Positions 878 through 61,134 of a stretch of 64,000 nt of DNA are shown here, piece by piece. The stretch is taken from positions 1,739 through 65,738 of the forward strand of contig JBAQAW010000058.1 of NCBI GenBank assembly GCA_049285915.1, read 5' to 3'. This DNA comes from Candidatus Cybelea sp. (lineage in GTDB: Bacteria > Vulcanimicrobiota > Vulcanimicrobiia > Vulcanimicrobiales > Vulcanimicrobiaceae). Made by a program: the position numbers and the translations under genes. Every line of letters starts with the position of its first letter. The stretch's first letter is position 1. Below the pieces are notes generated by a model that had not been told where the DNA came from, did no database searches, and saw nothing but the letters and a program-made list of their open reading frames with translations.

Positions 878-1846
878 TTGCGTAATAACGCTTTGCTATT
901 TCAGCGTGCGGCGGCGATATCCATATTTGGCGTCCTCGCCGCAGGCTGCTCGAGCGCCGGCATGCCGAGCGCAAGCTCAACGAGCGATTATCGCTCGATT
1001 GCGAACGGTCACGGCATACGCTCGCTTCGACCCCAGACAAAAGGGAGCGGTTGGATGTCTCCCGATGCCGGGAAGGGCAAGGGTCTGATCTACTGGGGCA
1101 ATTACGATACCAATACGATCACGATCTACTCGGCCAAAGGCGTCAACGGCAAGGAAGAAGGCCAAATCACGACGGGGCTTTCGAACCCCGAGCGTCTCTT
1201 CGTCGACGCAAAAGGCAGCGTCTATGCTACGAACATCGGCAACAATACGATCACCGCGTATAAGCCGGGGCAGACGACGCCGTTCTTAACGATCAGCAAC
1301 GGCGTGAACTCGCCGACCGGCCTCACCGTGGACGCGGCCGGCACGGTTTACTGCGCCAACGTCGGCAACGACACGATCACGGTCTATCCAAAAGGAGAGA
1401 CGTCTCCTTCGCTGACGATCCCGGCAACGAGCCCCGAGTACCTTGCGACGGATTCGCAAGATAATCTCTACGCCTCCGAGGGACCCGGCATAATCCAATA
1501 TGCTCCCGGGTCAACGACCGGGACGAATCTGGGCCTCCCTTCGTATCCGGGTGCGGTCGAAGTCGATAAAAAAGGCAATCTGATCGTGCTCTACGGTGCG
1601 GAAATCGAATACTTCCCGAAGGGCACGACTCAGCCGTCGAAAGAGATCCCCGTTACGGCCGGCAATCCGTTCGCGCTCTCGCTCAGCGGCCGCGAACACG
1701 CGCTATACGTAAGCGTAGAGGCCGGCACGCCGTTCGTCGTGCAAAAGGTCGCCTATCCGAACGGTACGTCATTGAGCAACAAACTCTCGACCAACGCGGG
1801 GCTTTGGCCGCTCGCGGTGAGTCCCGACGCCGCCTTAGGCAAATAG
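878..1846 (+). CDS. BP2: NHL-repeat beta-propeller lipoprotein
   Basis: TTG start 7 nt after AAGGAGG. Lipobox VLAAGC. Repeated blades such as SNPERLFVDAKGSVYATNIGNNTITAY and NSPTGLTVDAAGTVYCANVGNDTITVY. Confidence 0.75.
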   Translation: MRNNALLFQRAAAISIFGVLAAGCSSAGMPSASSTSDYRSIANGHGIRSLRPQTKGSGWMSPDAGKGKGLIYWGNYDTNTITIYSAKGVNGKEEGQITTGLSNPERLFVDAKGSVYATNIGNNTITAYKPGQTTPFLTISNGVNSPTGLTVDAAGTVYCANVGNDTITVYPKGETSPSLTIPATSPEYLATDSQDNLYASEGPGIIQYAPGSTTGTNLGLPSYPGAVEVDKKGNLIVLYGAEIEYFPKGTTQPSKEIPVTAGNPFALSLSGREHALYVSVEAGTPFVVQKVAYPNGTSLSNKLSTNAGLWPLAVSPDAALGK

Positions 1847-1931
1847 GAGAGCCCTGGCCGTCGGGTGTGGGCGGCGACCGAAAAAATAACCAGGGTCGCA
1901 TGATTCCCTGCAGAGATGGGGAAATAAATGA

Positions 1932-2309
1932 CCTGGGTCCCTGAGAAGGGGCAAGAGCGGAGCGGCTCGTGTTTCTGGAAGGTGCGCGACCTCGGACTTT
2001 TTCGCGGCAGCGGCGCTACTGACAGGATGCGGGGGTGGGCAAGCGCCGCTCGTGGCCGGGGCGCCGATTTGCCGGAGCCCCGGCCCTCTTTTACGGGCGA
2101 AAGAGTGGTAATTCCACGCATCGACGCCTGAGCCAAACGAAGGCATTCTTCGAGCAGACCTTTCTGCTTGAAGGAGCATTCGTATGGAACGCGGCCTGAA
2201 CCTGACGCCGGGCGGGGAGCCCGTCACGAGCCTCAATGGGACGCTCTACGGGACGACGGGCAATTCCGCCAAAAGCGGCTACGGCACCGTGTACGCCGTG
2301 CCGCAGTAG
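1932..2309 (+). pseudogene. Possible relic of a small lipoprotein gene with an LYGTT...GYGTVY repeat. The last 41 codons (2184..2309) form an intact mini-ORF behind a strong SD.
   Basis: One frame reads ...SDFFAAAALLTGCGGGQAPL... (lipobox, no canonical start), then a stop at 2109 and a stop at 2169. It continues after GAAGGAGC with MERGLNLTPGGEPVTSLNGTLYGTTGNSAKSGYGTVYAVPQ*. Confidence 0.3.
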
Positions 2310-2311
2310 CA

Positions 2312-5095
2312 TTAGCCTTCATCGGTCTGCGATCGCGCGAGCAGTTGCCCGAGCTGCAAACGCGATCGCAGCTTCAACTTTCTCAGCGCCGAAGAGACGT
2401 GTTTTTCGGCGGTACGAGGGCTGATGTGCAAGATCTGTGAGATATCTTCGTTCGAATGGCCGTTTGCTACCAGTCGCGCAGCCTCGAGCTCGCGCGACGA
2501 TAGCGACGATACCAGCGAAGCCGCGGCACCGGACGTCTCGATTTCTAAGCGCTGCAAATCGTGTCGCGATCCCAACGATCGATAGGTCTCCAGCGATCGC
2601 CGCCGCTCGCCGCCCAACTCGTAGGCGCGCGCTGCCAGCCACGGCCACCCGATCGCATCGAACTCTTGGGCGGCTCGAAGCGCGGCAGCGACGGTTTGCG
2701 CGGCGACGAAGCCGCGCTGTGCGGCGAAGGCGTCAAAAAGGTCCAAGGCCGCTTTGTTAACTCGGTCCGCCGGGCGCGCGGCCGCAACGACCAGCTGCTC
2801 GCGCATCGTAAGGGCGTCCGCGCGGCGGCCAAACTGGGCGGCAGCCAGATAGGCAAACAAGAACCGATGCGGCCCCGGCAAGGCCCGGGCGATCCGTTCG
2901 ATCCAGGCGGCGGCGGCGTCGTGCTCGCCGCGAATTCCAAGCGTCCACGAGTAAGGGCCGCCGAGAAGGCCGATCGCTACCTTCATCCCGCGTTCGATAC
3001 CGTAACGCAGAAACGATTCGGTGTCGTCGCGGCGCAGACGCGCTTCGTCGCCCGAACAGATTCCCAGCGCGAAGTTGGCGCTCTTGACGTGCACGAGGAT
3101 CGGGTAACTCTGCACCGTGACGTTGTCGACTTCGCGAAGCAGCGTCCCGGCAGTGGCGAAATCGCCGCGAAGGGTGTGCTCGAAGGCCGATGCTGCGGCG
3201 CGCATCGTCGTTTGCACCGATTGTGGCTCGCGCTTGGGCGGAGTCGCGGCGCGAAAGTGCTCGCGCGCGGCCGGTACGTCGCCGAGGCCGACGGCGTCGA
3301 GACCAATCTGGCAGTGCAGATGGCGAACCCAAGAGCCGCCGTCGTCAAGCTGGGCGGCCGCATCGAGCGCGCGCGCGCTGAAGCGGCGCCACATCTCAAG
3401 GTCACCACGCATCGCCGCAACGCGGAACCAATTCCACGATGCATGCATCGCTACGCGCGGATCGAGCATCGGCTCCGCAATCTCGTTGAGAAACTTCGCC
3501 GCCGAGTTATCGTCGAGTGCCGCAATGCAATGGAAGGCGAGCCTAGCACGAAATAAATCCAGCTTCTCGGGCGCCAGCGTTTCACTGAGCGTCGCGATCG
3601 CTTCCTGGCAGAGCGTCGTGGCCGCAAGCGCGTCGCCGCAGTTGTAGAGCTGCGCGACTAAGGCCGACGCATTCTCGGCGAAACCCTCGTGGTCGCCCTC
3701 TCTCCAGTAGAGGTCGCCGGCTCGCCGGAGCCGCTCGATGCCGGCATCCAGGTCGTTGATCGCGCCAAAGGCAACCCCGAGCTTATGCTCCAGTACCGCG
3801 GAGTCTGCGCGCACGGCAAGCGCGCGACCGTAGTAAAGAATCGCGTCGGCAAACGCGCCGATGGCGAAAGCGTTGTCGCCGGCCATCTCCTCATAGGCCG
3901 CCGCCCGCTGAAAATCGCCGGCTCCTTTCCAATGGTGAGCGAGTTCGATGCTAAACGCCTTCGGATTGGCCCGCGCCTCTAGTTCCGCGGCGATCGCTTC
4001 GTGCAGCGGGCGCACGCGCTCCGCCAGCAGCTCGCGGTAAAACACGGTCTGCGTGAGCCCGTGGCGGAAGGCGACGTCGCCGGGCGACGTCGACTCGTCG
4101 GAGAGCAGGCCGAGCGCCCGCGCTTGCTCTAGCGCACGCAGGACGACTTCTCGTTCGCCGCAGGAGAGCGCAACGAGCTGATTTATGGCAAACCGCTCGC
4201 CGAGCACGGCTGCGAGTGAGATGACGTCGCGGACGTCGCCCTGCAGCCGGGCCGCCCGCGCGAGAACGGCCGCGCGAATGGAGAGAGGCAGGTCCCTAGC
4301 ATTATTCGCACCGCCCATATCTTGCGCGCTTTTGGTGAGTTCTTCGGCGAAAAAAGCGTTGCCCTGGCTTCGCTTAACGATCTCGGAGATCGTCACCGTC
4401 GAGAGCGGTCGCGATCGATCGGCCACCTCGCCGATGAGTTCGCGAATCGCCCCTTCGTCGAGGGGCGGCAGCGACATCCCCGAAACGGCGCGCTTCGAAA
4501 GCAGTGCCGAAAACTCCGAAAGGTGAGGATGTCGCGATCCTACTTCCTCCGATCGATAGGTTGCGAGGAGAAGAATGCGCCGCCGTTCGAGCTGGTCCGC
4601 GAAATAACCCAGGAACGCCAGCGTCGAGCGGTCGGCCCAGTGAACGTCCTCGATCGTCAGGACCACGGCGCCGCGAAGGGCGCAGCGGGCAAAGGCGGCG
4701 TCGATCGAGTCGAAAAGCGAACCCTCGGGTATCCAGCTGGTCTTCGTTTCGAAATCGCGCTCGAACGCTAGCCGCTCGACGAGTGCGCGCGTCGCCGGGT
4801 CGGCAGCGGCGTTGCCCCTCCCCGCGAGCTGCCGGAGCAGATCGCGCAGCGGTGCAAGCGGAGTCTGCACGAACTCCACGCAGCGCGCAGAAGCCAGCAT
4901 CGTGCGACCGCTCGCAATATGCGCCGCGAAACGCCGGAGCAGTTCCGACTTGCCAATGCCCGCGTCGCCGCCGATCAATACGATGCCGCCGCGGCCCTCG
5001 GCCGCACGACGGCGATGCGCGGCAAGCTGCTCAAGCTCGCCTCGGCGGCCGATCAGTACATGACGAAATTCGGCGCCTGATACCTTGACGCTCAT
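2312..5095 (-). CDS. LAL-family regulator (N-terminal AAA+ ATPase, central TPR-like region, C-terminal LuxR HTH), copy 1
   Basis: P-loop GGDAGIGKSELLRRF, Walker B-like VLTIEDVHWAD, C-terminal LSSRELEAARLVANGHSNEDISQILHISPRTAEKHVSSALRKLKL. 927 aa. Confidence 0.85.
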   Translation of the reverse strand: MSVKVSGAEFRHVLIGRRGELEQLAAHRRRAAEGRGGIVLIGGDAGIGKSELLRRFAAHIASGRTMLASARCVEFVQTPLAPLRDLLRQLAGRGNAAADPATRALVERLAFERDFETKTSWIPEGSLFDSIDAAFARCALRGAVVLTIEDVHWADRSTLAFLGYFADQLERRRILLLATYRSEEVGSRHPHLSEFSALLSKRAVSGMSLPPLDEGAIRELIGEVADRSRPLSTVTISEIVKRSQGNAFFAEELTKSAQDMGGANNARDLPLSIRAAVLARAARLQGDVRDVISLAAVLGERFAINQLVALSCGEREVVLRALEQARALGLLSDESTSPGDVAFRHGLTQTVFYRELLAERVRPLHEAIAAELEARANPKAFSIELAHHWKGAGDFQRAAAYEEMAGDNAFAIGAFADAILYYGRALAVRADSAVLEHKLGVAFGAINDLDAGIERLRRAGDLYWREGDHEGFAENASALVAQLYNCGDALAATTLCQEAIATLSETLAPEKLDLFRARLAFHCIAALDDNSAAKFLNEIAEPMLDPRVAMHASWNWFRVAAMRGDLEMWRRFSARALDAAAQLDDGGSWVRHLHCQIGLDAVGLGDVPAAREHFRAATPPKREPQSVQTTMRAAASAFEHTLRGDFATAGTLLREVDNVTVQSYPILVHVKSANFALGICSGDEARLRRDDTESFLRYGIERGMKVAIGLLGGPYSWTLGIRGEHDAAAAWIERIARALPGPHRFLFAYLAAAQFGRRADALTMREQLVVAAARPADRVNKAALDLFDAFAAQRGFVAAQTVAAALRAAQEFDAIGWPWLAARAYELGGERRRSLETYRSLGSRHDLQRLEIETSGAAASLVSSLSSRELEAARLVANGHSNEDISQILHISPRTAEKHVSSALRKLKLRSRLQLGQLLARSQTDEG

Positions 5096-5205
5096 CTCTT
5101 TCCAAACGGCCTATTCGACCGAACCGTGGACCGACGCCTACGGCGCCCGGAGGGCGGGACGACCTTTCGCGTGAAAGCGAACTCTCCGATAAGGAGCAAG
5201 ATTAC

Positions 5206-6162
5206 GTGAGACGTCTCTTTCCAGCGACGGGGCTTGCCGTCGCCGCTCTGATCGTGGGCGGTTGCGCCGTCCCCTCAGGCCCCGCGGGGCTGCCTCCGGT
5301 GAGCGCGGGGCGCGAGGCCGGGCCGGCCCTGCCGAATGCCAAGGCAGGCGCGTTGCTGTACGTTTCCGATACCGAGACGAGCAACGTGTACGTCTATACG
5401 TATCCCGGCGGCGTGCTCAAACAGACGCTGGGCGGATTCATCGATCCGGGCGGCGAGTGCGTCGACGCAAAAGGGAACGTGTTCGTCACCAATACCGGCG
5501 GTTTGGATATCGTCGAGTACGCCCATGGCGCTTCGACCCCGGCGGCGACGCTCAACGACCCGGGATACTTTCCGTTCGGGTGTTCGGTCGACCCGACGAC
5601 GGGGAATCTCGCGGTCACGAACTTTTCGACCGCCAGCGGCAGCGGTTCGGGGAACGTGGTTATCTACGAACGCGCAAAGGGCAAGCCGAAGAAACGCTAC
5701 GGTGACGCAGCGATCGGCGGCATGCTGCTCTGCGGATACGACGACAAGGGCAACCTATTCGTCGACGGCTTGACGCAGGCGAGCACGACCGGTTTCGCCG
5801 AGCTGCCCAAGGGCGGCAAGAAGCTTGTCGACATCACGCTCGACCAAAACATCGTCGCCGCGGGCGGCGTGCAGTGGGACGGCAAGTACGTTGCCGTCGG
5901 CGACGAGGCATCCGACACGATCTACCGCTTCTCGATCAGCGGGAAGAAGGGGACGACTGCGGGCACCGCGGCTTTGAGCGGCGGGAGCGCGGTCGTGCAG
6001 TTTTGGATTGACGGCTCGAAGATCGTCGGGCCGAACTCCGGCCTGGGAACCGTCGGGATTTGGAAGTACCCCGCCGGCGGCGCGCCGACCAAAACGATCG
6101 GCGGACTCTACGTTCCGTTGGGGACGGTCGTAAGCAGAGCAAAAGGAGGCCAACGTGTTTGA
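5206..6162 (+). CDS. BP1: beta-propeller lipoprotein
   Basis: GTG start after AAGGAG. Lipobox LIVGGC. LYVSDTETSNVYVYTYPGG, ECVDAKGNVFVTN, IVEYAHG, GCSVDPTTGNLAVTN, C-terminal GIWKYPAGG. Alignable over its length with the other BP1 copies. Confidence 0.8.
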   Translation: MRRLFPATGLAVAALIVGGCAVPSGPAGLPPVSAGREAGPALPNAKAGALLYVSDTETSNVYVYTYPGGVLKQTLGGFIDPGGECVDAKGNVFVTNTGGLDIVEYAHGASTPAATLNDPGYFPFGCSVDPTTGNLAVTNFSTASGSGSGNVVIYERAKGKPKKRYGDAAIGGMLLCGYDDKGNLFVDGLTQASTTGFAELPKGGKKLVDITLDQNIVAAGGVQWDGKYVAVGDEASDTIYRFSISGKKGTTAGTAALSGGSAVVQFWIDGSKIVGPNSGLGTVGIWKYPAGGAPTKTIGGLYVPLGTVVSRAKGGQRV

Positions 6163-6913: not shown

Positions 6914-7846
6914 ATGCGGGTTGCAGTCATTGCCACGATCTTCGTTGCGCTTGCCGGATGCGGCGCTCAAGAGGCAGCCCCTAATAATGCGGCGGTGCCG
7001 GCAGCGGGTGCTGCCGGCGCGCGCGGTCCGCACGCGCGAACGTGGATGCGTGCAAAGGCGAAATCTGCAGATCTCATCTACACTTCGGACTTCGAGGGGA
7101 ACGTCTACGTTTATACGCTCCCGGCGTTGACGTTCGTTGGAGAGCTGGCGGCGCTCGGTGCAAATACCGTTAACCTCTGCAGCGATGCGAAGGGGCACGT
7201 CTTCGTTCCGGTGCAAAACGGCGGCAGCGGCGAGGTACTCGAGTTCGAGCACGGGGGAACGACGCCGATCGCTTCGATCTCCGATACGTATGAGCCGCTG
7301 TCGTGCGCAGTCGACCCGTCCAGCGGAGACCTCGCGTTGGCAAACGAGGAGCCAGGTTACGCCGCGGACATCGCGATCTACCACGGCTTGAAGGAAACGC
7401 CGAAGTTTTTTCGCGACTCGGATATTGCCGGGTACTGAGAGTATATGACGATTGCGCGGATGCCGTTCCGGCAGGGAACGGCGCGCATCTATCGTCTGCA
7501 GACGACGGGATCTTCCGCAACGGTCGTGGGGACGACGAAACTTTCGAGCCCCACCAAGCGTTTCGACGGACAGACGGCGATCGCTGGAGAGATGGTCGTT
7601 CAGCCCTATTCTCGACGGACCGATCGACTCGGCATGTGGCCGTATCCTCAGGGCAAGGCGATGAGCGCATCCGTCGACGTCGGCGCGTACATCAACGGGG
7701 TTACGGTCAGCTTCGCCAAACACGATCGGCGCAGTAGGATTCATACGCCGGTCGCCGGAGGCCAAGCGCAGCCCACGCATCCGGCCACTAAAGGCGGCGG
7801 CGAGGCAGAGCGCGAGCGCACTCGGCCGTCCGGTGATCGAGCCTAA
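6914..7846 (+). pseudogene. BP1 paralog interrupted by an in-frame TGA (7436..7438) and shortened internally
   Basis: ORFs 6914..7438 and 7445..7846 share one frame. The N part has lipobox VALAGC and matches the BP1 N half (NVYVYTLP, SDAKGHVFV, EFEHGG, SCAVDPSSGDLALAN). The C part matches the BP1 C end (IYRLQTTGSSATVVGTTKL, GMWPYPQG). The stretch between the YDD-blade and IYR is far shorter than in intact copies. Confidence 0.55.
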
Positions 7847-7913
7847 TCGTTGTATCAGCGAGAGATGAAAAAAGCGTAAAGATAAGAACGTAGCTAGCGG
7901 GAGGGTGTGGGTT

Positions 7914-8927
7914 ATGCGTTCGAGATTACTCGGTCTTTTTGCGGTCGCTCTGCTTGCGGGGTGCGCCGCTCCCTTCGACGCGCCGCCGGTCGCGGGTAGC
8001 GCAATCGAATCGAGCGGTGCAGCGCCGAGGGTTTTCGCGACGCCGCTGCGGATGGCAGCGCCCCACGGGCCGCGAGCCAAGGGGTGGATGGCGCCCGAGG
8101 TCCGGTACGGCGAGTCGCTGATCTACCTCGCCGGCGGCGGCGGAGTGAGCGTCTATCGCGAGCGGGGGCACAATCCGCCGCAGGTGGGCAGCATCGTCGA
8201 TGGCGTTGACGGCGCGTGGGGCTTATGCGTCGACCGCGAAGGAAAGCTCTACGTCGCCAATCGCAGTGCGAACACCGTTACCGTCTATCCGTACGGTTCG
8301 GTCACGCCGGTGGCAACCTATTCGAGTAGCCTTAACGGCCCGATGTATCCGATCGTGGATCACGAGGGCAATCTCTTCGTTACGAATTCGGGCGACAGTC
8401 GCGTGGTCGAGTACCTCGCACATCAGGTGACGCCGCACGCCATACTTCATCCGCCCGGAACGGAATCGGACGGCGTGGCTTTCGATGCGGCCGGCAACTT
8501 GTACGTGACCTACCGCGATGGCCTCTACGCCGGCGGAATCGTGCGCTACGCGCCGGGGGCGACGAAGGGCGAGATTCTGCCGATCTCGCTCATACAGCCG
8601 CAGGGGCTCGTGATCTCGCACGCAGGGCAGATGCTCGCCGTGCAGACCGGCTACGCCGACGGCCTGTACATCTTTCCGCCGGGTCTTCCCAAGCACGGCC
8701 AGGAGTTCGGCCCTCCGCACGAGCTCAAGGTGTTTGCAACGCCGACGGAACTCGTTCTCAACACGGCCGAGCACAGGATCTTTCTCTCGACCTACGAGCC
8801 TATCTACGACACGCGCTACCCGTTGAAGAACGGCGATGGCGCGCTGTACCGGCTGCTCCACCGCAAGCTCACCTTTCGCTACTCAGGCGTCGAGGGGATG
8901 GCGCTGAGCAACGCACAGCGCTTCTAG
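7914..8927 (+). CDS. BP2: NHL-repeat beta-propeller lipoprotein
   Basis: ATG at 7914 about 8 nt after GGGAGGG (an in-frame GTG at 7905 is also possible). Lipobox ALLAGC. Blades GLCVDREGKLYVANRSANTVTVY, YPIVDHEGNLFVTNSGDSRVVEY, GVAFDAAGNLYVT. Confidence 0.75.
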   Translation: MRSRLLGLFAVALLAGCAAPFDAPPVAGSAIESSGAAPRVFATPLRMAAPHGPRAKGWMAPEVRYGESLIYLAGGGGVSVYRERGHNPPQVGSIVDGVDGAWGLCVDREGKLYVANRSANTVTVYPYGSVTPVATYSSSLNGPMYPIVDHEGNLFVTNSGDSRVVEYLAHQVTPHAILHPPGTESDGVAFDAAGNLYVTYRDGLYAGGIVRYAPGATKGEILPISLIQPQGLVISHAGQMLAVQTGYADGLYIFPPGLPKHGQEFGPPHELKVFATPTELVLNTAEHRIFLSTYEPIYDTRYPLKNGDGALYRLLHRKLTFRYSGVEGMALSNAQRF

Positions 8928-8930
8928 CGT

Positions 8931-9212
8931 CTAATACTTCGCGACGAGCCGCTGCGCGTACCATTGCGGCCACGGCTCGGAGCGATTCTGGCTGGCGTAT
9001 TGCTCGTCGAACTCCACGAGGTCGCGGGTAAGGTGGCTGCGCACGGGGCGGTGTCCGAGAAGCGCCGGCAGCTCCGAGTGAGCCAACAGCCAATCGGAAT
9101 AGAACGTTGCCCAGTCGTCGTCGTTTCCGTCCGTGTCGGCGAAGACCATGTGATGCACGTCACCGACTTGCGTCAGCAATGCGGCGATCTTCGTGGTTGC
9201 GTCGTCGTTCAT
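8931..9212 (-). CDS. Hypothetical small cytoplasmic protein
   Basis: ORF trimmed to MNDDATT because the upstream codons lie in the dispersed repeat. Ends ...EPWPQWYAQRLVAKY. No family recognised with confidence. Confidence 0.45.
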   Translation of the reverse strand: MNDDATTKIAALLTQVGDVHHMVFADTDGNDDDWATFYSDWLLAHSELPALLGHRPVRSHLTRDLVEFDEQYASQNRSEPWPQWYAQRLVAKY

Positions 9213-9221
9213 GGGCTCGTG

Positions 9222-9243
9222 CTTCGACAAGCTCAGCGCGACA
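9222..9243 (+). repeat. Dispersed intergenic repeat, short variant (CTTCGACAAGCTCAGCGCGACA)
   Basis: Matches the core of the elements at 10075, 14007, 25681, 36795 and 39769. Confidence 0.6.
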
Positions 9244-9317
9244 CCGGGCATAGCCGCTTTCAAAGCAACGTCGGCAAGCAGGAGGGGAACCGCATGTAAG
9301 TTGGGTAAATCTAGCGC

Positions 9318-10073
9318 GTGGATAGTTTATCTCTCAGCGGACGGGTCGGCATCGTGACCGGCGGAGCGCGCGGCATCGGCGGCGCGATCAGCACACTGCT
9401 CGCGACCGACGGTGCAACCGTCGCCGTGCTTGGGTTGCCGGAGGATCGTGACCGGGCTCACTCTCTTGCCGCCCGGCTCAACGGCGCGGCTTCGCGCATT
9501 CATTTTTATCAGGGCGACGTCAGCGCCTACGATCAATGTCACGAGGCAGTCGAGTCGGTGCTGCGCGAGCACGGCCGTATCGATTTCCTAGTCAACAACG
9601 CGGGCATAACCCGCGACCACACGGTCCGGAAGATGACCGTCGAAGAGTGGGAAGCGGTCCTGCAGGTCAATCTCTCGGGGCCTTTTTTTATGATCAAAGC
9701 CGTCTTGGACACGATGCTCGAGCAGGGCTTCGGGCGGATCGTCAACGTCAGCTCTGTGGTAGGCGAGGCCGGCAACTTCGGGCAGGCGAACTACGCGGCG
9801 GCTAAAGCCGGGCTCATCGGCCTGACCAAGACCGTCGCGCTGGAAGTCGCCAAGCGCGGCATCACGGTCAACGCCGTCGCGCCGGGCTTCATCGAGACGG
9901 ATATGACCAAGGCGATGCCGGCCGAAGCGATCGAAAACGCGATCGCGCAGACGCCCGTTCGCCAGCTAGGCCAGCCGGAAGAGGTCGCGCGGCTGGTACG
10001 CTTCCTTTTAGACGAGAAGGCGGGCTATATCACCGGAGCGGTCTACAACATCAACGGCGGCTGGTACATGTGA
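9318..10073 (+). CDS. phaB: Acetoacetyl-CoA reductase-like SDR, immediately upstream of phaC
   Basis: TGGARGIG, NNAGITRDHTVRKM, YAAAKAG, PGFIETDM, NGGWYM. Paralog of 6155..6895. The symbol rests on context with phaC. Confidence 0.75.
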   Translation: MDSLSLSGRVGIVTGGARGIGGAISTLLATDGATVAVLGLPEDRDRAHSLAARLNGAASRIHFYQGDVSAYDQCHEAVESVLREHGRIDFLVNNAGITRDHTVRKMTVEEWEAVLQVNLSGPFFMIKAVLDTMLEQGFGRIVNVSSVVGEAGNFGQANYAAAKAGLIGLTKTVALEVAKRGITVNAVAPGFIETDMTKAMPAEAIENAIAQTPVRQLGQPEEVARLVRFLLDEKAGYITGAVYNINGGWYM

Positions 10074-10074
10074 T

Positions 10075-10120
10075 CCTTCGACAAGCTCAGGATGACAAAC
10101 GACAAGCTCAGGATGACAAA
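10075..10120 (+). repeat. Dispersed repeat with a perfect 21-bp tandem duplication (CGACAAGCTCAGGATGACAAA x2 at 10079..10099 and 10100..10120)
   Basis: Read directly from the sequence. It overlaps the candidate phaC starts at 10092 and 10113. Confidence 0.8.
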
Positions 10121-11846: not shown

Positions 11847-12214
11847 CCGACGACGACAAAACCGCCGCCAGCGGCGCCTGGCGCAGCCTCGGGGACTTCA
11901 TCCGCGGCCAGCGGGAGCTGGCCAACCTCTCGATGCGCCAACTCGCGGAGATCGCCAAGATCTCCAACCCCTACTTGAGCCAGGTCGAGCGAGGCCTCTA
12001 TAAGCCCTCGGCCGAGGTGCTCAAGAGCATCGCCAACGCGCTGCAGATCTCGGCGGAGACGATGTATTCGCAGGCCGGCCTGCTCGACAGCTCGACGACC
12101 CGGGAGAATAGCCACCACGGGGTCGAGCATGCGATAAAGATCGACCCCAGGCTGAGCGTCGATCAGAAGGAAGCCCTGATGCGGATCTATCGCAGTTTTG
12201 TCGGCGGGGGCTAG
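11843..12214 (+). CDS. XRE-family helix-turn-helix transcriptional regulator
   Basis: LSMRQLAEIAKISNPYLSQVERGLYKPSAEVLKSIANAL. ATGA start/stop overlap with phaC. Confidence 0.8.
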   Translation: MTDDDKTAASGAWRSLGDFIRGQRELANLSMRQLAEIAKISNPYLSQVERGLYKPSAEVLKSIANALQISAETMYSQAGLLDSSTTRENSHHGVEHAIKIDPRLSVDQKEALMRIYRSFVGGG

Positions 12215-12285
12215 TTGACAAACACAGCATCTGCTTGGTATACTTAGCACACCTCGACAAAAGCTAAGGAGATACAAGCAACCAC

Positions 12286-12660: not shown

Positions 12661-12690
12661 AAAAGTAAAGTCGTTCTGGGGGTCCCTTCG

Positions 12691-12725
12691 CCGCCCGGCT
12701 TCATGCCGGGCGGTCTTTCTTTTTC
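12691..12725 (+). terminator. Rho-independent terminator
   Basis: CCGCCCGGC-TTCAT-GCCGGGCGG followed by TCTTTCTTTTTC. Confidence 0.65.
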
Positions 12726-12743
12726 ATCGTGGAAGGCAGGCGT

Positions 12744-14006: not shown

Positions 14007-14073
14007 CTTCGACAGGCTCAGCATGACGCACTACTGGTCCTTCGATTGCGTTCGCTCCCCTCAGGATGACAGG
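14007..14073 (+). repeat. Dispersed repeat: short core (14007..14027) plus long form CCTTCGA-N14-CTCAGGATGACAGG (14039..14073)
   Basis: The long form parallels the 36795..36830 copy. Confidence 0.6.
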
Positions 14074-18155: not shown

Positions 18156-18273
18156 CTAATCTCTCTCCACAAGCGGGCGGGTCGGCGGCCTAGGTTCGGC
18201 CCGCGTTCGCCGCGCTCATTCCAAGGGCTTGCCGGGAGCGGGTGCGGGCGCGGCGCCGCCCAACTCTTCACGG

Positions 18274-51476: not shown

Positions 51477-52000
51477 CACGCCGCCATACTCTTCTCGAGC
51501 CGGGATCCCGAGCACCGGTCGCACGTCATCCACATCGTCCGCGACGTGGTCGAGATCGTCGCGATCGTTTTGGCAGGCGCCTGGGCGTTCTACGTCTTCA
51601 TCTACGAGAACCGGATCAAACCGTCGTTTACCGACCTGCAGACGGACGTCTCCGCTACGATGCAAAAGACGAGCCAGCGCGACGGCGCGACGGGAGTTCT
51701 TCTTAAGCCTGGATCGAGCCGTTCACCGCGACGGTCTACACGCCGAGCCGTCTTGCGCTGCAGTTGCTGACGTCGCCGCCGGTCACGTTCGATTTGCACG
51801 ACGGCAAGATCGCGGCCGATCCGGACGGCTCGCGGCCCGGCGCCGGCCTACCCTTCAACGCCGGCAGCGGCAACGGCGACATTCGTGCGCCACTCGTGGA
51901 AGCCGGGCGTGGGCTCGACGCCGATTACGCGCGTTTGGGCAGCGCGCGGGTTGCGGTTCGAGGCAAGATCGTCTTGATGCCGGATTCGCCGGATGATTTG

Positions 52001-52477
52001 CTAGGCTCTTCGCTTTCGCTCGGCTCGGCGAAAGACCGGATACACGATCGGCATCATGAGCGAGTTATAGAAAAACTTGAGCGCACTCGTCCGGAAACCG
52101 GGCGGCAGACGTCCCTCGTCTGCATCGATAATTGGGAAAGATTTCAGCTGCCTTTCCATCTTGGTGCTAAACTCGAGCCGCTCGGCGGCGCTGCGGCTGG
52201 TGTTGGCAAGGGCCCGGCGTATGCCGGCTTCATCGTCGGCCTCGCTGCAGATGTCCGCGGAAAACTCCGCGTCGCTCATCCCGAGAAAACGTAGTACGCT
52301 GCCGTCCATGAAGTCGTTATCACCATAGAGATATCCGTTCATCAAATCGTTTCCCGATTCGCGGCTCTGCTGCGCGCGGCGGGCCTTTTGCGCCATGCGC
52401 TTCACCCAAACCATTCCGTCGACCCTCTCCGACCCCGAGCACGGTATCCACGACATGGGTTTTTCTCCTTCGTTCAT
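52001..52477 (-). CDS. DUF5069-like protein
   Basis: GMVWVKRMAQKARRAQ...YLYGDNDFMDGSVLRFLGMSDAEF resembles the DUF5069 N-terminal signature. Recognition from memory. Confidence 0.55.
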   Translation of the reverse strand: MNEGEKPMSWIPCSGSERVDGMVWVKRMAQKARRAQQSRESGNDLMNGYLYGDNDFMDGSVLRFLGMSDAEFSADICSEADDEAGIRRALANTSRSAAERLEFSTKMERQLKSFPIIDADEGRLPPGFRTSALKFFYNSLMMPIVYPVFRRAERKRRA

Positions 52478-52521
52478 TTTAGCCCGGATTCACTTGACGA
52501 TTTGACGAAAATACATCTAAG

Positions 52522-54174
52522 CCGGGATTCCCCATATGGCCGTCCTTTTCGAGCCGACGGCGGGCAACTCCGTCGATTTTCTGGGCGTTTGGCAAGCCAA
52601 GTTGTCAGTTCGGCCCGAGTTGAAGCCTGCGTCGGGCCACGTAGCGCCAAAAGCTTCGCAGCGCGGTCATAGGGACACACCTCTCCCATTGGTTTCCGGC
52701 GCATGTAGTCGGCCGGGGTGATCATGTTACCGCCGCCAACGGCGGCGATCGAAGCGAAGCGATTCTCTCGACGATGGCGCCGAACAACTTGCGCGGGATC
52801 GCGACCTCCGCCATCTGAAACGCGACATACCGGCCGTGGCTGACGACCTTCGCGCCGATCTTGATCAGCTTCTCGCGCAGCGTTGTCAACGACCACTCGG
52901 CAATCGCCTCGGGAATCGCCAACGTCCGAAGGAAGTTGCCAAGATTGTACGCCAGCGCGTGAAGCTGGAGTCGGACTGCGTTTGCGTCGAACGACTGGCA
53001 CGAGAGCCGCGTCCCCTTTAGTGCGCCTTTCCATTCTTTTATGCATTGCTCAGCCGTTCCGCGCTGATTGTAAAACTCGACGACGTGCTCCGACTTGCGA
53101 CGCAGGTTCGTAACGATGAATCCGACGCGAGGAAACAGCTCCCCGAAATGCCATTCTACCTTAGCGATGACCCGCCGCGGCCGCGACCAACTCGCAGCCT
53201 GATAGCGGAAGCTCCTGTAGAAGCGCTGCACGTAGTGCGCCGGCCGACCGACCGGCCGCTTGAGCAAGTCAGCGATCTCCGCCTGGAGTATCTGATTGGC
53301 GGGAAGGCGGATGGCGTATTCGATGCCCTCCGATTCGAGGTACTCGTACATGCTCGGCTGCGCAAAGGCAGCGTCGCCACGAAACGCGATGCTTTCGGCA
53401 GATTGTTGGTAGCGCGCAACGACCGGCTTGAGCACCGCTTCCCAGCCGTCAGCACTATGGACGTTGCCAGGGCGAAGCGCGCATCGTTCCAGATCGCCAT
53501 CCTGATTGAAGACGAAGAGCGGATGGTAGCACGTACAGCCGAAGTGTCCGTTCCAAACGCTGCTCTCTTGATCGCCATGCGTTGGGCTGACGCTCGAGTC
53601 CATGTCGAGTACGGCGCGACCGCGTGGACGACGTTTCGCAACCTGGTCAATCCAGTGACCGGAGAGATCGGCGAGCGTTGCGAGGTTCTCCGGCCTTGCC
53701 AGACAGTTCGTTTCGAATCGGCCCATCTGGCTCGGTGACGCGCCCGACCCTTTCGTTGCTTTACCGCCGATGATGTAGCGTATGGCGGGGTCGTGCCGCA
53801 AACGGAGCGCGTCGTTCACGTCTTCATATCCGGCAAGCCTGCCGAAGAGTGATTGCCGCAACATGCCGACGAGGGCGTGGCGACCGTTCTTGCCCGTGCG
53901 CGCATCGGCGAGAAGATCCCCGGCCGACGTTGTCAATCCAAGTGCATCGTCAAGTTCGCGATATGCGAGCAAACCTGCATCCGAGGTGACGACCGAGCCG
54001 CGAAACTGCACCATGATGCGGCGGTCGAAATCGAGTCGTAAAACGTCGTTTTCGGTTTCACCCGTCGGGTTCGTCAATCCAGCCTCACATCATGAGCGCG
54101 ATTCCTCATATGTAGTATAGCAGAACCGCTGTGCATCAGCAGCGGATTTGCGAATGCATCCGGGGAATGCGGGT
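52522..54174 (-). mobile_element. IS1380-family insertion sequence (about 1.65 kb) flanked by TAAG direct repeats
   Basis: Imperfect terminal inverted repeats CCGGGATTCCCC (52522..52533) and GGGGAATGCGGG (54162..54173). TAAG at 52518..52521 and 54175..54178. Single DDE transposase ORF inside. Confidence 0.75.
52722..54077 (-). CDS. IS1380-family DDE transposase
   Basis: N-terminus FRGSVVTSDAGLLAYRELDDALGLT, GRLAGYEDVNDALRLRHDP, ASPSQMGRFE. 451 aa, typical for IS1380-family transposases. Confidence 0.85.
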   Translation of the reverse strand: MTNPTGETENDVLRLDFDRRIMVQFRGSVVTSDAGLLAYRELDDALGLTTSAGDLLADARTGKNGRHALVGMLRQSLFGRLAGYEDVNDALRLRHDPAIRYIIGGKATKGSGASPSQMGRFETNCLARPENLATLADLSGHWIDQVAKRRPRGRAVLDMDSSVSPTHGDQESSVWNGHFGCTCYHPLFVFNQDGDLERCALRPGNVHSADGWEAVLKPVVARYQQSAESIAFRGDAAFAQPSMYEYLESEGIEYAIRLPANQILQAEIADLLKRPVGRPAHYVQRFYRSFRYQAASWSRPRRVIAKVEWHFGELFPRVGFIVTNLRRKSEHVVEFYNQRGTAEQCIKEWKGALKGTRLSCQSFDANAVRLQLHALAYNLGNFLRTLAIPEAIAEWSLTTLREKLIKIGAKVVSHGRYVAFQMAEVAIPRKLFGAIVERIASLRSPPLAAVT

Positions 54175-55123: not shown

Positions 55124-56482
55124 ATGAGGAAAAGATGGCCGGCGGCTCTTCCGGTGGCGGCGTTGCTGCTGGGGGGATGCGGCATGGGCAGCCCCGCGCT
55201 GCCGTACATGCGCGGCGATACGATGATGGGGGCCTTGAACGATACCGGCGCCGGGAAGATCACCCACATCGTCTACATCGTTCAGGAGAATCGCAGCTTC
55301 GACAACCTCTTTCACAATTATCCCGGCGCGGATACCGTCTCGAGCGGAAAAAACTCGCACGGCCAAACGATCGTACTGCAGCCGGTCCACCTCAGCGCGC
55401 ACTACGACATCGATCACTCCGCCGGTGCGATGTTCTCCGCGTGCAACGCTCCGCCGGGCGACCTTCCGGGAACGCACTGTCGGATGAACGGTTTCGATCT
55501 CGAGCAGTACTACAACGTGCCGCAGGGCCTCAAACATCCGCAGTACACGTACACGCCGGCCGGCGAATCGAAGCCGTACTTCGCGATGGCGCGCGAGGGG
55601 GCGCTGGCGGACCGCATGTTCCAATCGCAGATCGACGAGAGCTTCGTGGCGCATCAATACATCATCGCGGCGCAGGCGCAGTGGGCGGTGGACCTTCCGG
55701 ACAGCTTTTTCTGGGGCTGTGAGGAAGGCAGCATTACGGTTCGAACGATTTCGAAGCAACGCCTGTTAGGATCCCCGATCTCCGCGTGCTTCGATTACAC
55801 GACGTTGGGAGACGAGCTCGACAAGGCGCATCGCACGTGGCGATTCTATGCGAGCCAGTACGGCAGCGCCTCGAGCGGCGCAGGCGGGACGTGGTCGAGC
55901 TATCAGGCGATCGATCACATCTACAACGGACCGGATTGGAAGAAAGACGTGATCTCACCGAACTGGAAGTTCATCACCGACGTGCGCGCCGGCAAGCTTG
56001 CGAACTTCACATGGATTACGCCGGTCTGCGACGATTCCGACCACGTGAACTGCTCCGGCGGATACGGGCCGTCCTGGGTGGCGGCGCTCGTGAACACCGT
56101 CGGTCAGAGCAAGTTTTGGAACTCGACGGCGATCTTCATCCAGTGGGACGACTGGGGCGGCCTTTACGATCACGTCGCACCGCCCTACCTCGATCGCGAC
56201 AGCCTCGGTTTCCGCGTGCCGCTCGTCATGCTTTCGCCGTACGTCAAGCGCGGCCACATTTCAAAGGTGCAGTACGAAACCGCGAGCGTGCTGCGCTTTG
56301 CCGAGGATCTCTGGGGCTTACCTCAGATGGCGCCGGCCGACCGGCGCGCGACCTCACCGGCCAAAGATAACTTCGACTTCACGCAAAAACCGCTGCCGTT
56401 CAAGAAAATTGCGGCGCCGCTCCCACCGAAATTCTTCATGCATCAACTGCCGGACGACTACTTCGCGCCGGACGAGCAGTAG
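55124..56482 (+). CDS. PE-B: PLC/AcpA-family phosphoesterase lipoprotein
   Basis: Lipobox LLGGC. GAGKITHIVYIVQENRSFDNLF, DESFVAHQYIIAAQA, DSDHVNCSGGYGPSWV, IQWDDWGGLYDHVAP. Confidence 0.9.
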   Translation: MRKRWPAALPVAALLLGGCGMGSPALPYMRGDTMMGALNDTGAGKITHIVYIVQENRSFDNLFHNYPGADTVSSGKNSHGQTIVLQPVHLSAHYDIDHSAGAMFSACNAPPGDLPGTHCRMNGFDLEQYYNVPQGLKHPQYTYTPAGESKPYFAMAREGALADRMFQSQIDESFVAHQYIIAAQAQWAVDLPDSFFWGCEEGSITVRTISKQRLLGSPISACFDYTTLGDELDKAHRTWRFYASQYGSASSGAGGTWSSYQAIDHIYNGPDWKKDVISPNWKFITDVRAGKLANFTWITPVCDDSDHVNCSGGYGPSWVAALVNTVGQSKFWNSTAIFIQWDDWGGLYDHVAPPYLDRDSLGFRVPLVMLSPYVKRGHISKVQYETASVLRFAEDLWGLPQMAPADRRATSPAKDNFDFTQKPLPFKKIAAPLPPKFFMHQLPDDYFAPDEQ

Positions 56483-56696: not shown

Positions 56697-56916
56697 GTGC
56701 CGGCGGAGCAAAGCTTCACCTACAATCGCGTAGAGTTCAAAAACTATCGAGGAAAGCTGAAGGGCCGCGTTACGCTAAAGGCGACTTGCGGTCGATTCTC
56801 GCGGTTCGAACATTTCCTGGTGGAACTATCCTGCCGGCGGAAAGCCCTTGCAGACGATCGACGGCGCCGGCACCAACGTCGTGGGGATCGTGGTAAGCAC
56901 CGCGCGACAGCACTAG
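56697..56916 (+). pseudogene. Relic of the 3' end of a BP1 gene (two frames, no N-terminal part)
   Basis: Frame 3 reads NRVEFKNYRGKLKGRVTLKAT (compare IYRVKISGTSGRVTGETV). Frame 1 reads LAVDSRGSNISWWNYPAGGKPLQTIDGAGTNVVGIVVS* (compare VGIWKYPAGGAPTKTIGGLYVPLGTVVS). Confidence 0.5.
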
Positions 56917-59351: not shown

Positions 59352-59358
59352 GCGATCC

Positions 59359-60042
59359 TTAGGAGTGCAGGGTGTAGCCGGCGCCTCGTATCGTCACGAC
59401 CAGCGGGGGCTCGTTCTCATCTGCGTTGACTTTTGCTCGCAGGTACGAGATGTAGGTCTCGACGCAGTTTTGCGAGACCTCGGATTCGAAACCCCAGACG
59501 CGGTCGAGCAGGTCGTCTTTGCTAAAGACGCGGTGCGGTTCGCGCATGAAAGTCTCCAGCAGCCGAAACTCGCGTCCGGTCAGTGCCAGCTCCGACTCAC
59601 CGCGGTGGACTTTGTGCCGGCGGAGGTCCATCTCGAGGTCGTTGTACGTGAGGATCTCGGGTGCATCGAGCTGCGGGCGGCGCAATGCGGAACGAATTCG
59701 TGCGATCAGTTCCGGCGTCTCAAAGGGTTTGGCGAGGTATTGATCCGCGCCGCGCTCGAGGCCGAGCACCTTATCCCCGGTTTCGCCTTTGGCGCTGAGA
59801 ATGAAGATCGGTGCCTGAGTCAGCGCGCGGTACCGCGGCAGCACGCTGATGCCGTCGATCTTGGGCATCATTACGTCGAGCAGGATCAGGGACGGATCGA
59901 ACTCGCGCACGACGTCGAGCCCCGCGAGCCCGTCGCGGGCCCCGCGAACCTCGAATCCGGCCGCTTCGAGTTCCCACGTCAGCAAACGGCGGATCGGCTC
60001 CTCGTCGTCGATCACGACGATTCGCGGCGCTCGTGAGTCCAT
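59359..60042 (-). CDS. OmpR-family response regulator
   Basis: RIVVIDDEEPIRRLL, LILLDVMMPKIDG, SAKGE. Winged-helix LTGREFRLLETFMREPHRVFSKDDLLDRVWG. Confidence 0.9.
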   Translation of the reverse strand: MDSRAPRIVVIDDEEPIRRLLTWELEAAGFEVRGARDGLAGLDVVREFDPSLILLDVMMPKIDGISVLPRYRALTQAPIFILSAKGETGDKVLGLERGADQYLAKPFETPELIARIRSALRRPQLDAPEILTYNDLEMDLRRHKVHRGESELALTGREFRLLETFMREPHRVFSKDDLLDRVWGFESEVSQNCVETYISYLRAKVNADENEPPLVVTIRGAGYTLHS

Positions 60043-60191
60043 CGTTCAACGGTAGCGCTCCTCGCTGAGATGGACCTTGGGACGGCCCGGGCGCCCTAGG
60101 CTGGTCAGGGCAGTGTCGCGGCCTTCGACGGCTGGAGGATCGAGGTCGACGCTTCATGAGCGCTTTCGCGGCTCCGCGTAATGAAGAGTTC

Positions 60192-61134
60192 ATGAAGTAT
60201 CATGCCAGCTCCAAGCCCTGGCTCGCACTCTCGCTAGGCGCACTCGCGACTCTCTCTGCCGGATGCGCCGGCGCAAACACGGGCACCGCGTTTGAATCGC
60301 CTGTCCTTCAGAACCAGGAAACGCGCCCGGCCACCCAATCGCAACAGAAGCTCTACGTTACCGACGTCAATGGGAGTGTGTCGGTTTTCAGCGTCGGCAA
60401 GAAGCCGCAATTGCTGCGGACCATCACCGACGGCGTTCCGCGCCCCTACGGGGTCTGGGTCGACGAGAATGGAATTCTGTACGTCGTCAACCTCGCAAAC
60501 GACTCGGGTGAGGCGAGTCTCTCGGAATACAAGCCTGGAGCGTTCTCGCCGTTCTTCCAAATCACCAGCGGTGTTTTGAATTTCGGCGTCGTCGCCGTCG
60601 ACGACAGTGGCAACGTCTATCTCTCAGGCCTGGCGTCGTCCTACGAGGTGTCGTACGTCAACGTCTATCCGCCCGGCGCGTACACGCCCGCAGACGCTCC
60701 AGGTCCCGACGGAACGTGCGCTCTCTCGATCGGAGAGCTTGACCTTCGATCCCAGCGGCAATCTCCTCGTGGGTGTCGCAGCGCTGCCGAAAAAATATAT
60801 CTCCGTCTTGCGGTTGGCGTACGGTTCTCAGCAATTTACTAACGTCGGCCTCAAGAGAACAGCGGGTGTCCTCGCAGCGGCGGATGCAGCGGGGAACATC
60901 TATGTGGGTGGCGGCACCCGGAAGATCGACATCTACGCACCTAACCCCACAAAATCGAAGCACGTCATCCGCATACCCGGAGGCCACCTCGTAACGGCCC
61001 TTACCGTTGCCGGCGATGGAACGCTGTACGTCGGCTCGGAGTCTTTCATCTACGTGTGCTCGCCGAAAAAGCTTAAGCTGGAGACGACGATCTCCGGGGG
61101 CGGTTCAATCGGCGGCCTTGGTTTGTCGCCGTAG
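60192..61134 (+). pseudogene. BP2 NHL-repeat lipoprotein with a frameshift near 60690..60735
   Basis: The N part is in the frame of ORF 60156 (lipobox LSAGC, LYVTDVNGSVSVF, PYGVWVDENGILYVVN, VVAVDDSGNVYLSG). The C part is in the frame of ORF 60607 (SLTFDPSGNLLVG, LAAADAAGNIYVGG, ALTVAGDGTLYVGS). Confidence 0.6.

Follow-up and report, generated by a model that had tools for sequence, protein, structure and literature searches.

Does the crowding of two lipoprotein families into one stretch of bacterial DNA reflect the pairing of an enzyme with a partner protein, or two families that expanded side by side? The question is raised by a window of 64,000 nt from Candidatus Cybelea sp. (assembly GCA_049285915.1, contig JBAQAW010000058.1, positions 1,739 to 65,738 of the forward strand); by window we mean this whole stretch. 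It carries many genes for PF04185 phosphoesterases (PE) and for two families of propeller lipoproteins (BP and BP2), whose members we name by their start coordinate. The original prediction had read them as the product of an ancestral PE-BP module next to pstB. We conclude that the lineage-specific co-expansion of these envelope lipoprotein families is real and that it is not a new two-component system, as PE and BP form neither an operon nor a conserved pair. The explanation we favour, as probable but well short of certain, is that families of envelope lipoproteins have long been expanding in tandem within shared islands; the PEs would be AcpA-like scavengers, the propellers envelope proteins and the co-location of the two loose. 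An old tandem expansion is suggested because the paralogues are divergent, PE-PE and BP-BP adjacencies are in excess and PEs form arrays.

Peat, tundra and forest soils that are acidic and poor in nutrients harbour the Eremiobacterota in abundance, and nearly all of the group is uncultured. According to the NCBI taxonomy, Vulcanimicrobium belongs to the same family as the Candidatus Cybelea of our window (Vulcanimicrobiaceae; Vulcanimicrobiota = Eremiobacterota, WPS-2). Vulcanimicrobium is the sole cultured member of the phylum, a Gram-negative diderm with lipopolysaccharide in its outer membrane and a genome of 3.5 Mb, and it forms granules of polyphosphate and of polyhydroxyalkanoate (PHA) (PMC9758169). 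Because Vulcanimicrobium is diderm we infer a diderm envelope for Candidatus Cybelea. A full-text literature search returned no paper that ties the Eremiobacterota to the PE or BP families or to an expansion of phospholipases or acid phosphatases.

Inventory of the lipoprotein families

The open reading frames (ORFs) of the window with GC3 support were grouped by all-vs-all BLAST, and the full inventory was taken with a six-frame scan using family hidden Markov models (HMMs) and with tblastn. The BLAST groups comprised 10 PE ORFs, 13 BP ORFs and a separate BP2 pair. The HMM and tblastn inventory gave 10 full-length PEs, 12 intact BPs, 2 BP2s, 2 BP pseudogenes and 1 BP relic. With 26 members in 60 kb their co-residence is plainly non-random. 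The ten predicted phosphoesterases of the PLC/AcpA type are thus all full-length PF04185 proteins. For the propellers a total of 16 plus a relic had been claimed, which stands, but the claimed three pseudogenes among them are reduced to two, because ORF 37378-38652 aligns over its full length and in one frame to BP 38662. The members are as follows (coordinates, strand, description):

878-1846, +, BP directly 3' of pstB (88-bp gap); BP HMM 303.6 bits; lipobox AAGC
5206-6162, +, BP; BP HMM 364.9 bits; lipobox VGGC
6923-7720, +, BP pseudogene; HMM 8-183 and 247-332; in-frame stop at ~7436-7438; ~60 HMM positions (184-246) gone
7905-8927, +, BP; BP HMM 307.9 bits; NHL PF01436 27.1 bits; lipobox LAGC
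14132-15529, +, PE; PF04185 E 5.6e-53; catalytic motifs kept; lipobox VTAC
15654-17093, +, PE, convergent with BP 17112; PF04185 E 4e-56; pair kept in the related locus L044 (87%/77% identity)
17112-18155, -, BP; BP HMM 387.9 bits; lipobox LAAC
19572-20921, +, PE, in a clade with 28852 and 55124 (~71% identity); PF04185 E 2.8e-45
24071-25588, -, PE; PF04185 E 2.6e-62; AcpA 2d1g is the best solved relative, E 2.7e-24
25801-27219, +, PE; PF04185 E 2.3e-56
27262-28719 (ORF to 28887), -, PE; PF04185 E 8.4e-58; lipobox LAGC at residue 70 of the long ORF
28897-30264 (ORF from 28852), +, PE; PF04185 E 5.4e-48; lipobox LSGC
31558-32796, +, BP2; 77% identity to 32818; lipobox MTAC
32818-34005, +, BP2; AlphaFold (AF2) pLDDT 85.8; Foldseek TRIM71/TRIM2 NHL, Pizza6, PknD 1rwl
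34031-35320, +, PE, catalytically degenerate; QEARSF, GSGDF, NSDLP; lipobox LCGC
35331-36320, +, BP, 10 bp 3' of PE 34031; AF2 pLDDT 88, 24 strands; Foldseek NHL/YWTD propellers
37555-38652 (ORF from 37378), +, BP, divergent but intact; 37.5% identity over 373 aa to BP 38662, one frame; lipobox LSGC; 349 aa in sister metagenome-assembled genomes (MAGs)
38662-39768, +, BP; BP HMM 321.7 bits; NHL 32.3 bits; ScyD/ScyE-like NF033206 58 bits, below the cut-off of 80
42904-43971, ~43968-45002, ~45032-46081 and 46078-47109, +, tandem array of four BPs; BP HMM 320-400 bits each; 61-66% mutual identity
47484-48854, +, PE; PF04185 E 4e-54
50475-51476, +, BP; BP HMM 337.1 bits; lipobox FAGC
55124-56482, +, PE; PF04185 E 4.8e-47
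56794-56907, +, BP relic, C-terminal ~35 aa, marginal; HMM 298-332, 23 bits; tblastn 40% identity to BP 43992, E 1e-5
60228-61044, +, BP pseudogene, fragments in two frames; HMM 8-176 and 78-157; tblastn frames 3 and 1

A lipobox-type N-terminus, as had been claimed for every intact member, was matched by a regular expression in all intact PEs, BPs and BP2s. The pattern was [LVI][ASTVI][GAS]C near the N-terminus, with two looser variants (LCGC in PE 34031 and SVGC in BP 42904), and the homologue alignments of all three families show the lipobox Cys as invariant or almost invariant. The signal peptides of the PEs contain no twin-arginine motif and are of the Sec/lipobox type. For PE 27262 the start is likely the Met ahead of the signal peptide, which gives the 485 aa called in the sister MAGs. 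Next to these members, an ORF of 401 aa with high GC3 and without a family match (17949-19154, +) overlaps the 5' end of BP 17112-18155 in antisense by ~200 bp; probably this ORF is spurious, owing to the high GC content, or its start is mis-set.

The window has a G+C content of ~62% and no tRNA genes, and an Rfam scan of it gave no match. Six independent assemblies have the identical gene order over the central ~21 kb (approximately window positions 25,300-46,300), which rules out an assembly artefact as the source of this arrangement.

Identity and catalytic state of the phosphoesterases

All ten PEs matched PF04185 over profile positions 1-355 of 356, with 155-211 bits against a cut-off of 23 (E 1e-45 to 1e-62). 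They are 429-505 aa long and PF04185 is the only Pfam domain detected in them. In order to assess their catalytic state we used the residue set of the PF04185 superfamily that was defined in the structure paper on NPC4 (PMC9837106): a hydroxyl nucleophile (AcpA Ser175, NPC4 Thr158), an E-N pair, two His and a D-D/E pair. Ser175 of Francisella AcpA (2d1g) aligns to the Ser of the conserved GSxSF motif. Nine of the ten PEs keep QENR with the E-N pair, the nucleophile Ser (in GSxSF, DESF or GPSF), the His of SDH and the acidic pair of WDDWGG.

The tenth, PE 34031, has lost the nucleophile (Ser to Asp, GSGDF), a His (to Leu, NSDLP) and the Asn of the E-N pair (to Ala, QEARSF). Its nearest relatives, at 51% identity or less, retain intact catalytic motifs. 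In two of the six sister assemblies (L001 and L002, positions 8672-9990) the same locus carries a frameshifting insertion of 29 bp. PE 34031 is therefore a probable decaying copy or pseudoenzyme, and the insertion points to ongoing pseudogenisation within one population.

We compared the PEs with the two curated subfamilies of PF04185. For the acid phosphatases of TIGR03397 the three PEs that were scored reached 114-137 bits, far below the cut-off of 362.75. For the phosphocholine-specific phospholipases C (PC-PLC) of TIGR03396, whose architecture spans ~700 aa and includes a C-terminal region, we obtained 98-131 bits against a cut-off of 580.25, with the match confined to the N-terminal two thirds of the model. 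The scores are thus slightly better with TIGR03397. Because the PEs fall below both cut-offs, have PF04185 as their sole domain and carry Sec/lipobox signals, we place them in an AcpA-like lipoprotein clade of their own within PF04185, which belongs to neither curated subfamily. They resemble the AcpA and Burkholderia-type acid phosphatases (TIGR03397, 2d1g) in the full-length PF04185 match, in size and in having no further Pfam domain. AcpA is also their best match among solved structures, with an aligned Ser175 and with QENR, SDH and WDDWGG present in nine of the ten. They differ from this type in their low TIGR03397 scores, in their lipoprotein anchor and in the presence of ten diverged paralogues within 42 kb. 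With PlcH/PlcN (TIGR03396) and NPC4 they share the PF04185 catalytic domain and the residue set defined for NPC4 (PMC9837106), but they are ~200 aa shorter, show no detected C-terminal domain and have Sec/lipobox signals instead of Tat signals. The PEs are probably AcpA-like organophosphate scavengers.

The PE family is large, with at least 5,903 homologue clusters, of which the closest with organism labels mostly come from Cybelea or other Eremiobacterota. Annotation pipelines name these homologues "alkaline phosphatase family protein" or "phospholipase C", the latter name coming from JGI. The paralogues of the window share 34-72% identity, and in metagenome loci PE arrays of up to five genes are found.

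Fold and distribution of the propellers

The Pfam matches of BP and BP2 are weak, with NHL, SGL and SBBP at or below their cut-offs. PF01436 exceeded 20 bits for BP 7905, the 37378 ORF, BP 38662 and BP 46078 and reached 19.7 bits for BP 878; the other members tested had no match. PF08450 (SGL) gave at best 25.7 bits (BP 878) and 16-22 bits for the others, all below the cut-off of 26.3. The predicted structures are more informative. AlphaFold models, computed from alignments of 78 sequences for BP and 61 for BP2, are six-bladed propellers both for BP 35331 (pLDDT 88, pTM 0.84) and for BP2 32818 (pLDDT 85.8, pTM 0.83). Their best PDB neighbours in Foldseek are the NHL domains of Pizza6, Brat, TRIM71, TRIM2 and PknD (1rwl), with E 1e-9 to 1e-11, a target-normalised TM of ~0.7-0.8 and 12-20% sequence identity; YWTD propellers also occur among the neighbours of the BP model. 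On these models BP and BP2 are NHL-type six-bladed beta-propellers, which agrees with the NHL-like identity originally proposed for them despite the weak Pfam matches. The two families are related at the repeat level only (hhalign 79% over 68 columns) and share the fold.

The likeness to the known NHL propellers (PknD 1rwl, Pizza6, Brat/TRIM71) thus consists of six predicted four-stranded blades and weak PF01436 matches, and for the PknD sensor domain also of the extracytoplasmic location predicted for BP. Unlike these proteins the BPs are lipoproteins on their own, with neither a kinase nor a TRIM scaffold attached, and the sequence identity is low. The enzymes of the SMP-30/gluconolactonase/LRE (SGL), PON/DFPase and phytase types share the six-bladed fold with them, together with the weak PF08450 scores of 16-26 bits and a match of BP2 to the SGL structure 2p4o at rank 39. 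None of these types is among the top 50 structural matches of BP, however, and the beta-propeller phytase family PF02333 gave no Pfam match at E <= 0.01 and did not occur in the Foldseek top 50 for either BP or BP2. We considered the invariant Asp residues of BP (D95, D137 and D187) as a metal site of the PON/SGL type and rejected this, as they occur once per blade inside an NHL-type "CxVD...GN" motif, form no recognisable single metal site, and the structural neighbours are NHL and not SGL proteins.

Homologues of BP form 217 clusters and those of BP2 806. They have no functional names, nearly all being called 'hypothetical protein', and their organism labels are mostly Cybelea or Tumulicola. 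In a scan of one genome per GTDB species we found 508 relatives of BP; the best 80 of these come nearly all from Eremiobacterota MAGs, with three labelled "Acidoferrum" and one "uncultured bacterium". By these matches BP and BP2 appear confined to the Eremiobacterota. Both families are highly paralogous, with identities of 12-66% among the BPs of the window and 77% within the BP2 pair.

Gene neighbourhood in the window and in related loci

The window contains five neighbour pairs, in agreement with the adjacencies originally listed, all of which are correct by their coordinates: 17093/17112 (convergent), 34005/34031, 35320/35331 (10-bp gap), 47109/47484 (374-bp gap) and 56482/relic 56794. For comparison we took the best 80 BP relatives as BP-anchored loci (80 loci of other species, 1.40 Mb) and 80 metagenome loci as a PE-anchored sample (814 kb). 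Related loci carry L-numbers, of which L001 and L002 come from sister MAGs, and W stands for the window.

The BP-anchored loci hold 177 BPs, 4 BP2s and 36 PEs. PEs occur in 24 of the 80 loci and are absent from the other 56. For 16 of the 36 PEs the distance to a BP is at most 250 bp. When all neighbours in these loci were clustered, PE was the most frequent family other than BP (35 genes in 21 loci). PEs took up 4.9% of the gene slots within three genes of a BP compared to 1.1% at distances of 4-10 genes (odds ratio (OR) 4.5, p 1.2e-4), and a cruder model based on gene calls gave OR 2.0 (p 0.07); these figures are near-vs-far contrasts inside loci of ~20 kb. Against shuffling within loci we counted 16 PE-BP adjacencies where 10.4 were expected (p 0.024) in the slot model and 10 where 6.9 were expected (p 0.11) with gene calls. 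We conclude that PE and BP co-reside regionally beyond what is expected from distant positions, while the size of the enrichment is uncertain. The original expectation of co-occurrence in related genomes finds some support around BP (OR 2-4.5), whereas the PE-anchored loci show no significant short-range enrichment. The latter contain 122 PEs, often in arrays, and 27 BPs or BP2s; 17 of these 80 loci have a BP, and among the 22 most similar loci the number is 11.

As to adjacency within families, the window has four PE-PE adjacencies where 1.6 are expected (p 0.04), and the related loci show an excess of both PE-PE (p 0.0035) and BP-BP adjacency (p 0.002). Some orthologous PE-BP pairs are still adjacent across species, e.g. 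W15654/17112 with L044 and L049 with L041 (86%/80% identity), and adjacency of orthologous pairs is retained down to ~57-80% protein identity.

Further families recur around BP in the 80 loci. GloVer tandem-repeat lipoproteins (TIGR03803, 327.8 bits) were found in 16 of them, e.g. at L046:6438-7706, and show a remote hhalign similarity to BP (92%). An unannotated family of ~408 aa (L025:14837-16063 and eight other loci) has the lipobox pattern in 11 of 11 ORFs. Sulfatases, a penicillin amidase and other lipoprotein families are recurrent as well.

Regulators divergent from the propeller genes

The family most tightly tied to BP is a regulator. Two LAL/MalT-like regulators are encoded in the window, each divergent from a BP gene or array:

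2312-5095, -, LAL/MalT-like regulator, divergent from BP 5206; Pfam AAA_16 and GerE (LuxR HTH)
39804-42662, -, LAL/MalT-like regulator, divergent from the BP array at 42904; AAA_16, TPR_MalT and GerE

In the BP-anchored sample LAL genes are present in 12 loci and occur 11 times near BP compared to once far from it (OR 11.7, p 0.003), a proximity enrichment above that of PE and BP. The divergent orientation is the usual one and is also seen in L063, L068, L070, L075 and L081. With their AAA_16-TPR-LuxR HTH architecture and their position divergent to presumed targets, these proteins resemble the STAND regulators of substrate-inducible genes. They differ from the known LAL/MalT systems in that the presumed targets are propeller lipoproteins and that no shared operator was found in the divergent LAL-BP intergenic regions of paralogous units, beyond orthologues.

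Proximity to pst genes and possible phosphate control

The original prediction let the block begin next to pstB, and this is confirmed by TIGR00972 for the first gene of the window:

1-790 (ORF 122-790), +, pstB, phosphate ABC transporter ATPase; TIGR00972 299.9 bits, model 32-248/248; 5' end beyond the window start

In the syntenic loci L030, L044, L059 and L075 pstS, pstC and pstA lie upstream of pstB. Several related species share the gene order of the left part of the window, namely pstSCAB, BP, (LAL), BP, SDR, phaC, HTH, small ORF, AKR, PE, PE, BP(-); the small conserved ORF between HTH and AKR has no family match. The orthologue of BP 878 follows pstB at 65-89 bp in L044, L075 and L059. 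In the window the gap between pstB and BP 878 has no terminator-like site, and BP 878 has a strong ribosome-binding site ahead of it and, at 2071, a terminator-like hairpin behind it; as the number of terminator-like sites equals that expected from shuffling, this is weak evidence for a common transcript. The BP 878 orthologue group is probably co-transcribed with pstB. In L042, a more distant genome, the orthologue is convergent to a three-gene PE array, which is the best, though still indirect, hint that this group may be phosphate-related. In M. tuberculosis pknD lies beside pstS2/pstB, a comparable case of an NHL propeller that adjoins pst genes, which we treat as a lead, not as a test. 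The nearest PE is 13 kb from pstB, behind unrelated genes, and pstB adjoins a single BP instead. Of the phosphate-scavenging role that had been suggested, the part that concerns the PEs is plausible, but the link to pstB comes down to one BP gene, and no Pho-type signal was found at the promoters of PE or BP.

Two sequence elements bear on the question of such a signal. Upstream of pstS (L030 ~5000-5200, L044 ~4900-5050, L059 and L075) we observed a conserved CTTAAT-N5-GTTAAT with an 11-bp repeat spacing, followed by TTACAA(A/C)TA; this block is a candidate Pho box and promoter of the lineage. The other element, GCTCAGGATGACA, occurs in nine copies in the window with at most two mismatches, where ~1 is expected, all on the + strand and often paired ~20 bp apart. 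Eight of the nine are intergenic:

10085-10118, 14016-14071, 25714-25746, 36816-36828 and 39802-39814, +, GCTCAGGATGACA sites; the ninth copy (45838) lies inside a BP gene

It is found upstream of PE 14132, PE 25801, phaC (where it overlaps the predicted start) and pstS. Related Eremiobacterota loci contain 86 matches, L031:3818-4176 being one such place, and as many as 14 copies follow one another in tandem, one every ~26 bp. We rejected the element as a Pho signal because it is a generic intergenic tandem repeat on both strands beside many families; it looks like a phylum-wide REP-like intergenic repeat.

Other genes of the window

A PHA-related cluster (9318-13604) comprises an SDR, phaC (PhaC_N and alpha/beta hydrolase), a small HTH regulator, an ORF of 124 aa and an aldo-keto reductase. 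Several related species have it in the syntenic position too, with the pst operon on one side and the first PE pair on the other. The 124-aa ORF, which has no family match, is possibly a phasin. Between BP 50475 and PE 55124 we found an IS1380-family transposase (52722-54077, -; NF033539 389.7 bits). A search for terminal inverted repeats around it gave no clear ones, and neither of the flanking ORFs (51764-52294 and 52474-53046) matches a family.

Favoured explanation and its alternatives

Under the favoured explanation several envelope lipoprotein families would have grown over long periods in a paralogue-rich island, their genes duplicating in tandem and then diverging. PE, BP and BP2 would leave the cytoplasm through Sec, receive a lipid anchor and stay tethered, either within the periplasm or at the outer membrane. 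The PEs would be a diversified set of extracytoplasmic phosphomono- or diesterases that liberate phosphate from organic phosphorus where peat and soil are acidic and poor in phosphorus, for uptake by PstSCAB. The propellers would serve as ligand-binding and possibly catalytic envelope proteins, many of them controlled by a divergently encoded LAL/MalT-type STAND regulator. Co-location of PE and BP would be regional and loosely conserved, involving neither an operon nor an obligate pair of enzyme and partner.

That the co-location is loose and the pair not a fixed one is borne out by several observations. In the window the number of PE-BP adjacencies is no higher than expected for a random ordering of the 57 genes (4 vs 5.6, P = 0.87). 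In the PE-anchored loci there is no significant short-range enrichment of BP (OR 1.8, p 0.17), and adjacencies number 10 where 10.1 are expected. The order and strand of the 16 adjacent pairs are random: nine are on the same strand (five with PE before BP, four with BP before PE), five are convergent and two divergent. The identities of PE and BP over the 16 pairs are correlated (Mantel r 0.50, p < 0.0005), but the correlation is gone when pairs with a PE identity of at least 65% are left out (r 0.016, p 0.42); the loss without orthologous pairs excludes ancient co-duplication and means that adjacency was inherited in some lineages. Other points weigh against this explanation. The regional enrichment is a near-vs-far contrast inside loci of ~20 kb, for which the slot and gene-call models give different strengths. 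Many of the related loci are phylogenetically close, thus their synteny is partly inherited and not independently selected. As regards function, the activity, expression and location of PE and BP are deduced from sequence and models, and as the PEs score below both subfamily cut-offs they may have phospholipase or another phosphodiesterase activity. The candidate Pho box has no match in the window with up to one mismatch allowed, although the motif may not be the Pho box of the phylum. A local histidine kinase and response regulator were considered as PhoR/PhoB and rejected, with scores far below the cut-offs.

Could PE and BP instead be a functional two-component unit, an enzyme with a substrate-binding or partner propeller, derived from an amplified two-gene module as originally proposed? 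PE is the commonest foreign neighbour of BP, nearly half of the PEs in the BP-anchored loci (16 of 36) lie within 250 bp of one, adjacency exceeds the within-locus shuffle in the slot model, some pairs stay adjacent across species, and the BP 878 orthologue stands beside pstB in some genomes and beside a PE array in L042. Against this, the pairs have random order and strand, PE and BP show no congruence once orthologues are removed, and neither the window nor the PE-anchored loci have an excess of adjacency. Absence is also common, with no PE in 56 of 80 BP-anchored and no BP in 63 of 80 PE-anchored loci. The two places in the window that had suggested the module do not match each other: PE 34031 and PE 55124 belong to different PE clades (36% identity), and the relic at 56794-56907 best matches BP 43992/5206 and not BP 35331. 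In other species, the orthologues nearest to BP 35331 (L011 and L052) lack a PE within 10 kb. Moreover the only tightly spaced same-strand PE-BP pair in the window, 34031-35331, which had served as the showcase, contains the catalytically dead PE that is frameshifted in some sister MAGs. A conserved operon or two-gene module, with common order, strand and co-phylogeny across paralogous units, was thus not found. We regard the two-component unit as quite unlikely, and a physical partnership of PE and BP as very improbable. Equally hard to credit is a wider scheme in which diversified propellers, acting as receptors or adaptors, would bind particular substrates, organophosphate or otherwise polymeric, and pass them on to the PEs, with the BP 878 group built into the pst operon, as an Eremiobacterota-specific combinatorial phosphorus harvesting at the envelope.

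A more serious competitor, which we consider possible yet doubtful, is that PE and BP are functionally unconnected and that abundant, duplication-prone lipoprotein families pile up in shared plastic regions. It would account for the chance-level PE-BP adjacency in the window and for the frequency of the other family even far from the anchor (PE 1.1%, BP 3.1% of gene slots). GloVer proteins, the 408-aa lipoprotein and sulfatases populate the surroundings of BP too, and the IS1380 transposase and the pseudogenes indicate a plastic region. What it leaves unexplained is the near/far contrast in favour of PE around BP, the retention of adjacent orthologous pairs and the fact that one BP orthologue group is tied to pstB in some genomes and to a PE array in another. 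The function of the PEs may also be a different one. PF04185 takes in PlcH/PlcN, the mycobacterial Plc enzymes and plant NPC4 (PMC9837106), JGI labels homologues as phospholipase C and TIGR03396 gives partial matches, so that the PEs could be phospholipases C or sphingomyelinases involved in membrane-lipid turnover under phosphate stress or in an attack on moss hosts, fungi or competitors. Yet their scores are far under the PC-PLC cut-off, no domain beyond PF04185 is present and hence the C-terminal domain that NPC4 requires for activity is missing (PMC9837106), the signal peptides lack a twin-arginine motif, and the closest solved structure is that of the monoesterase AcpA. We hold this assignment to be unlikely.

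Tandem expansion in a shared island remains our favoured explanation, and its meaning for the lineage is threefold. The many diverged, lipid-anchored PEs would be a testable contributor to the turnover of organic phosphorus in peatlands. As an enzyme-partner module is not conserved, effort need not be spent on a presumed heterodimer. Finally, BP and BP2, which are phylum-restricted, number hundreds of copies and often occur with STAND regulators, are a candidate for a new envelope repertoire of sensing or binding proteins.

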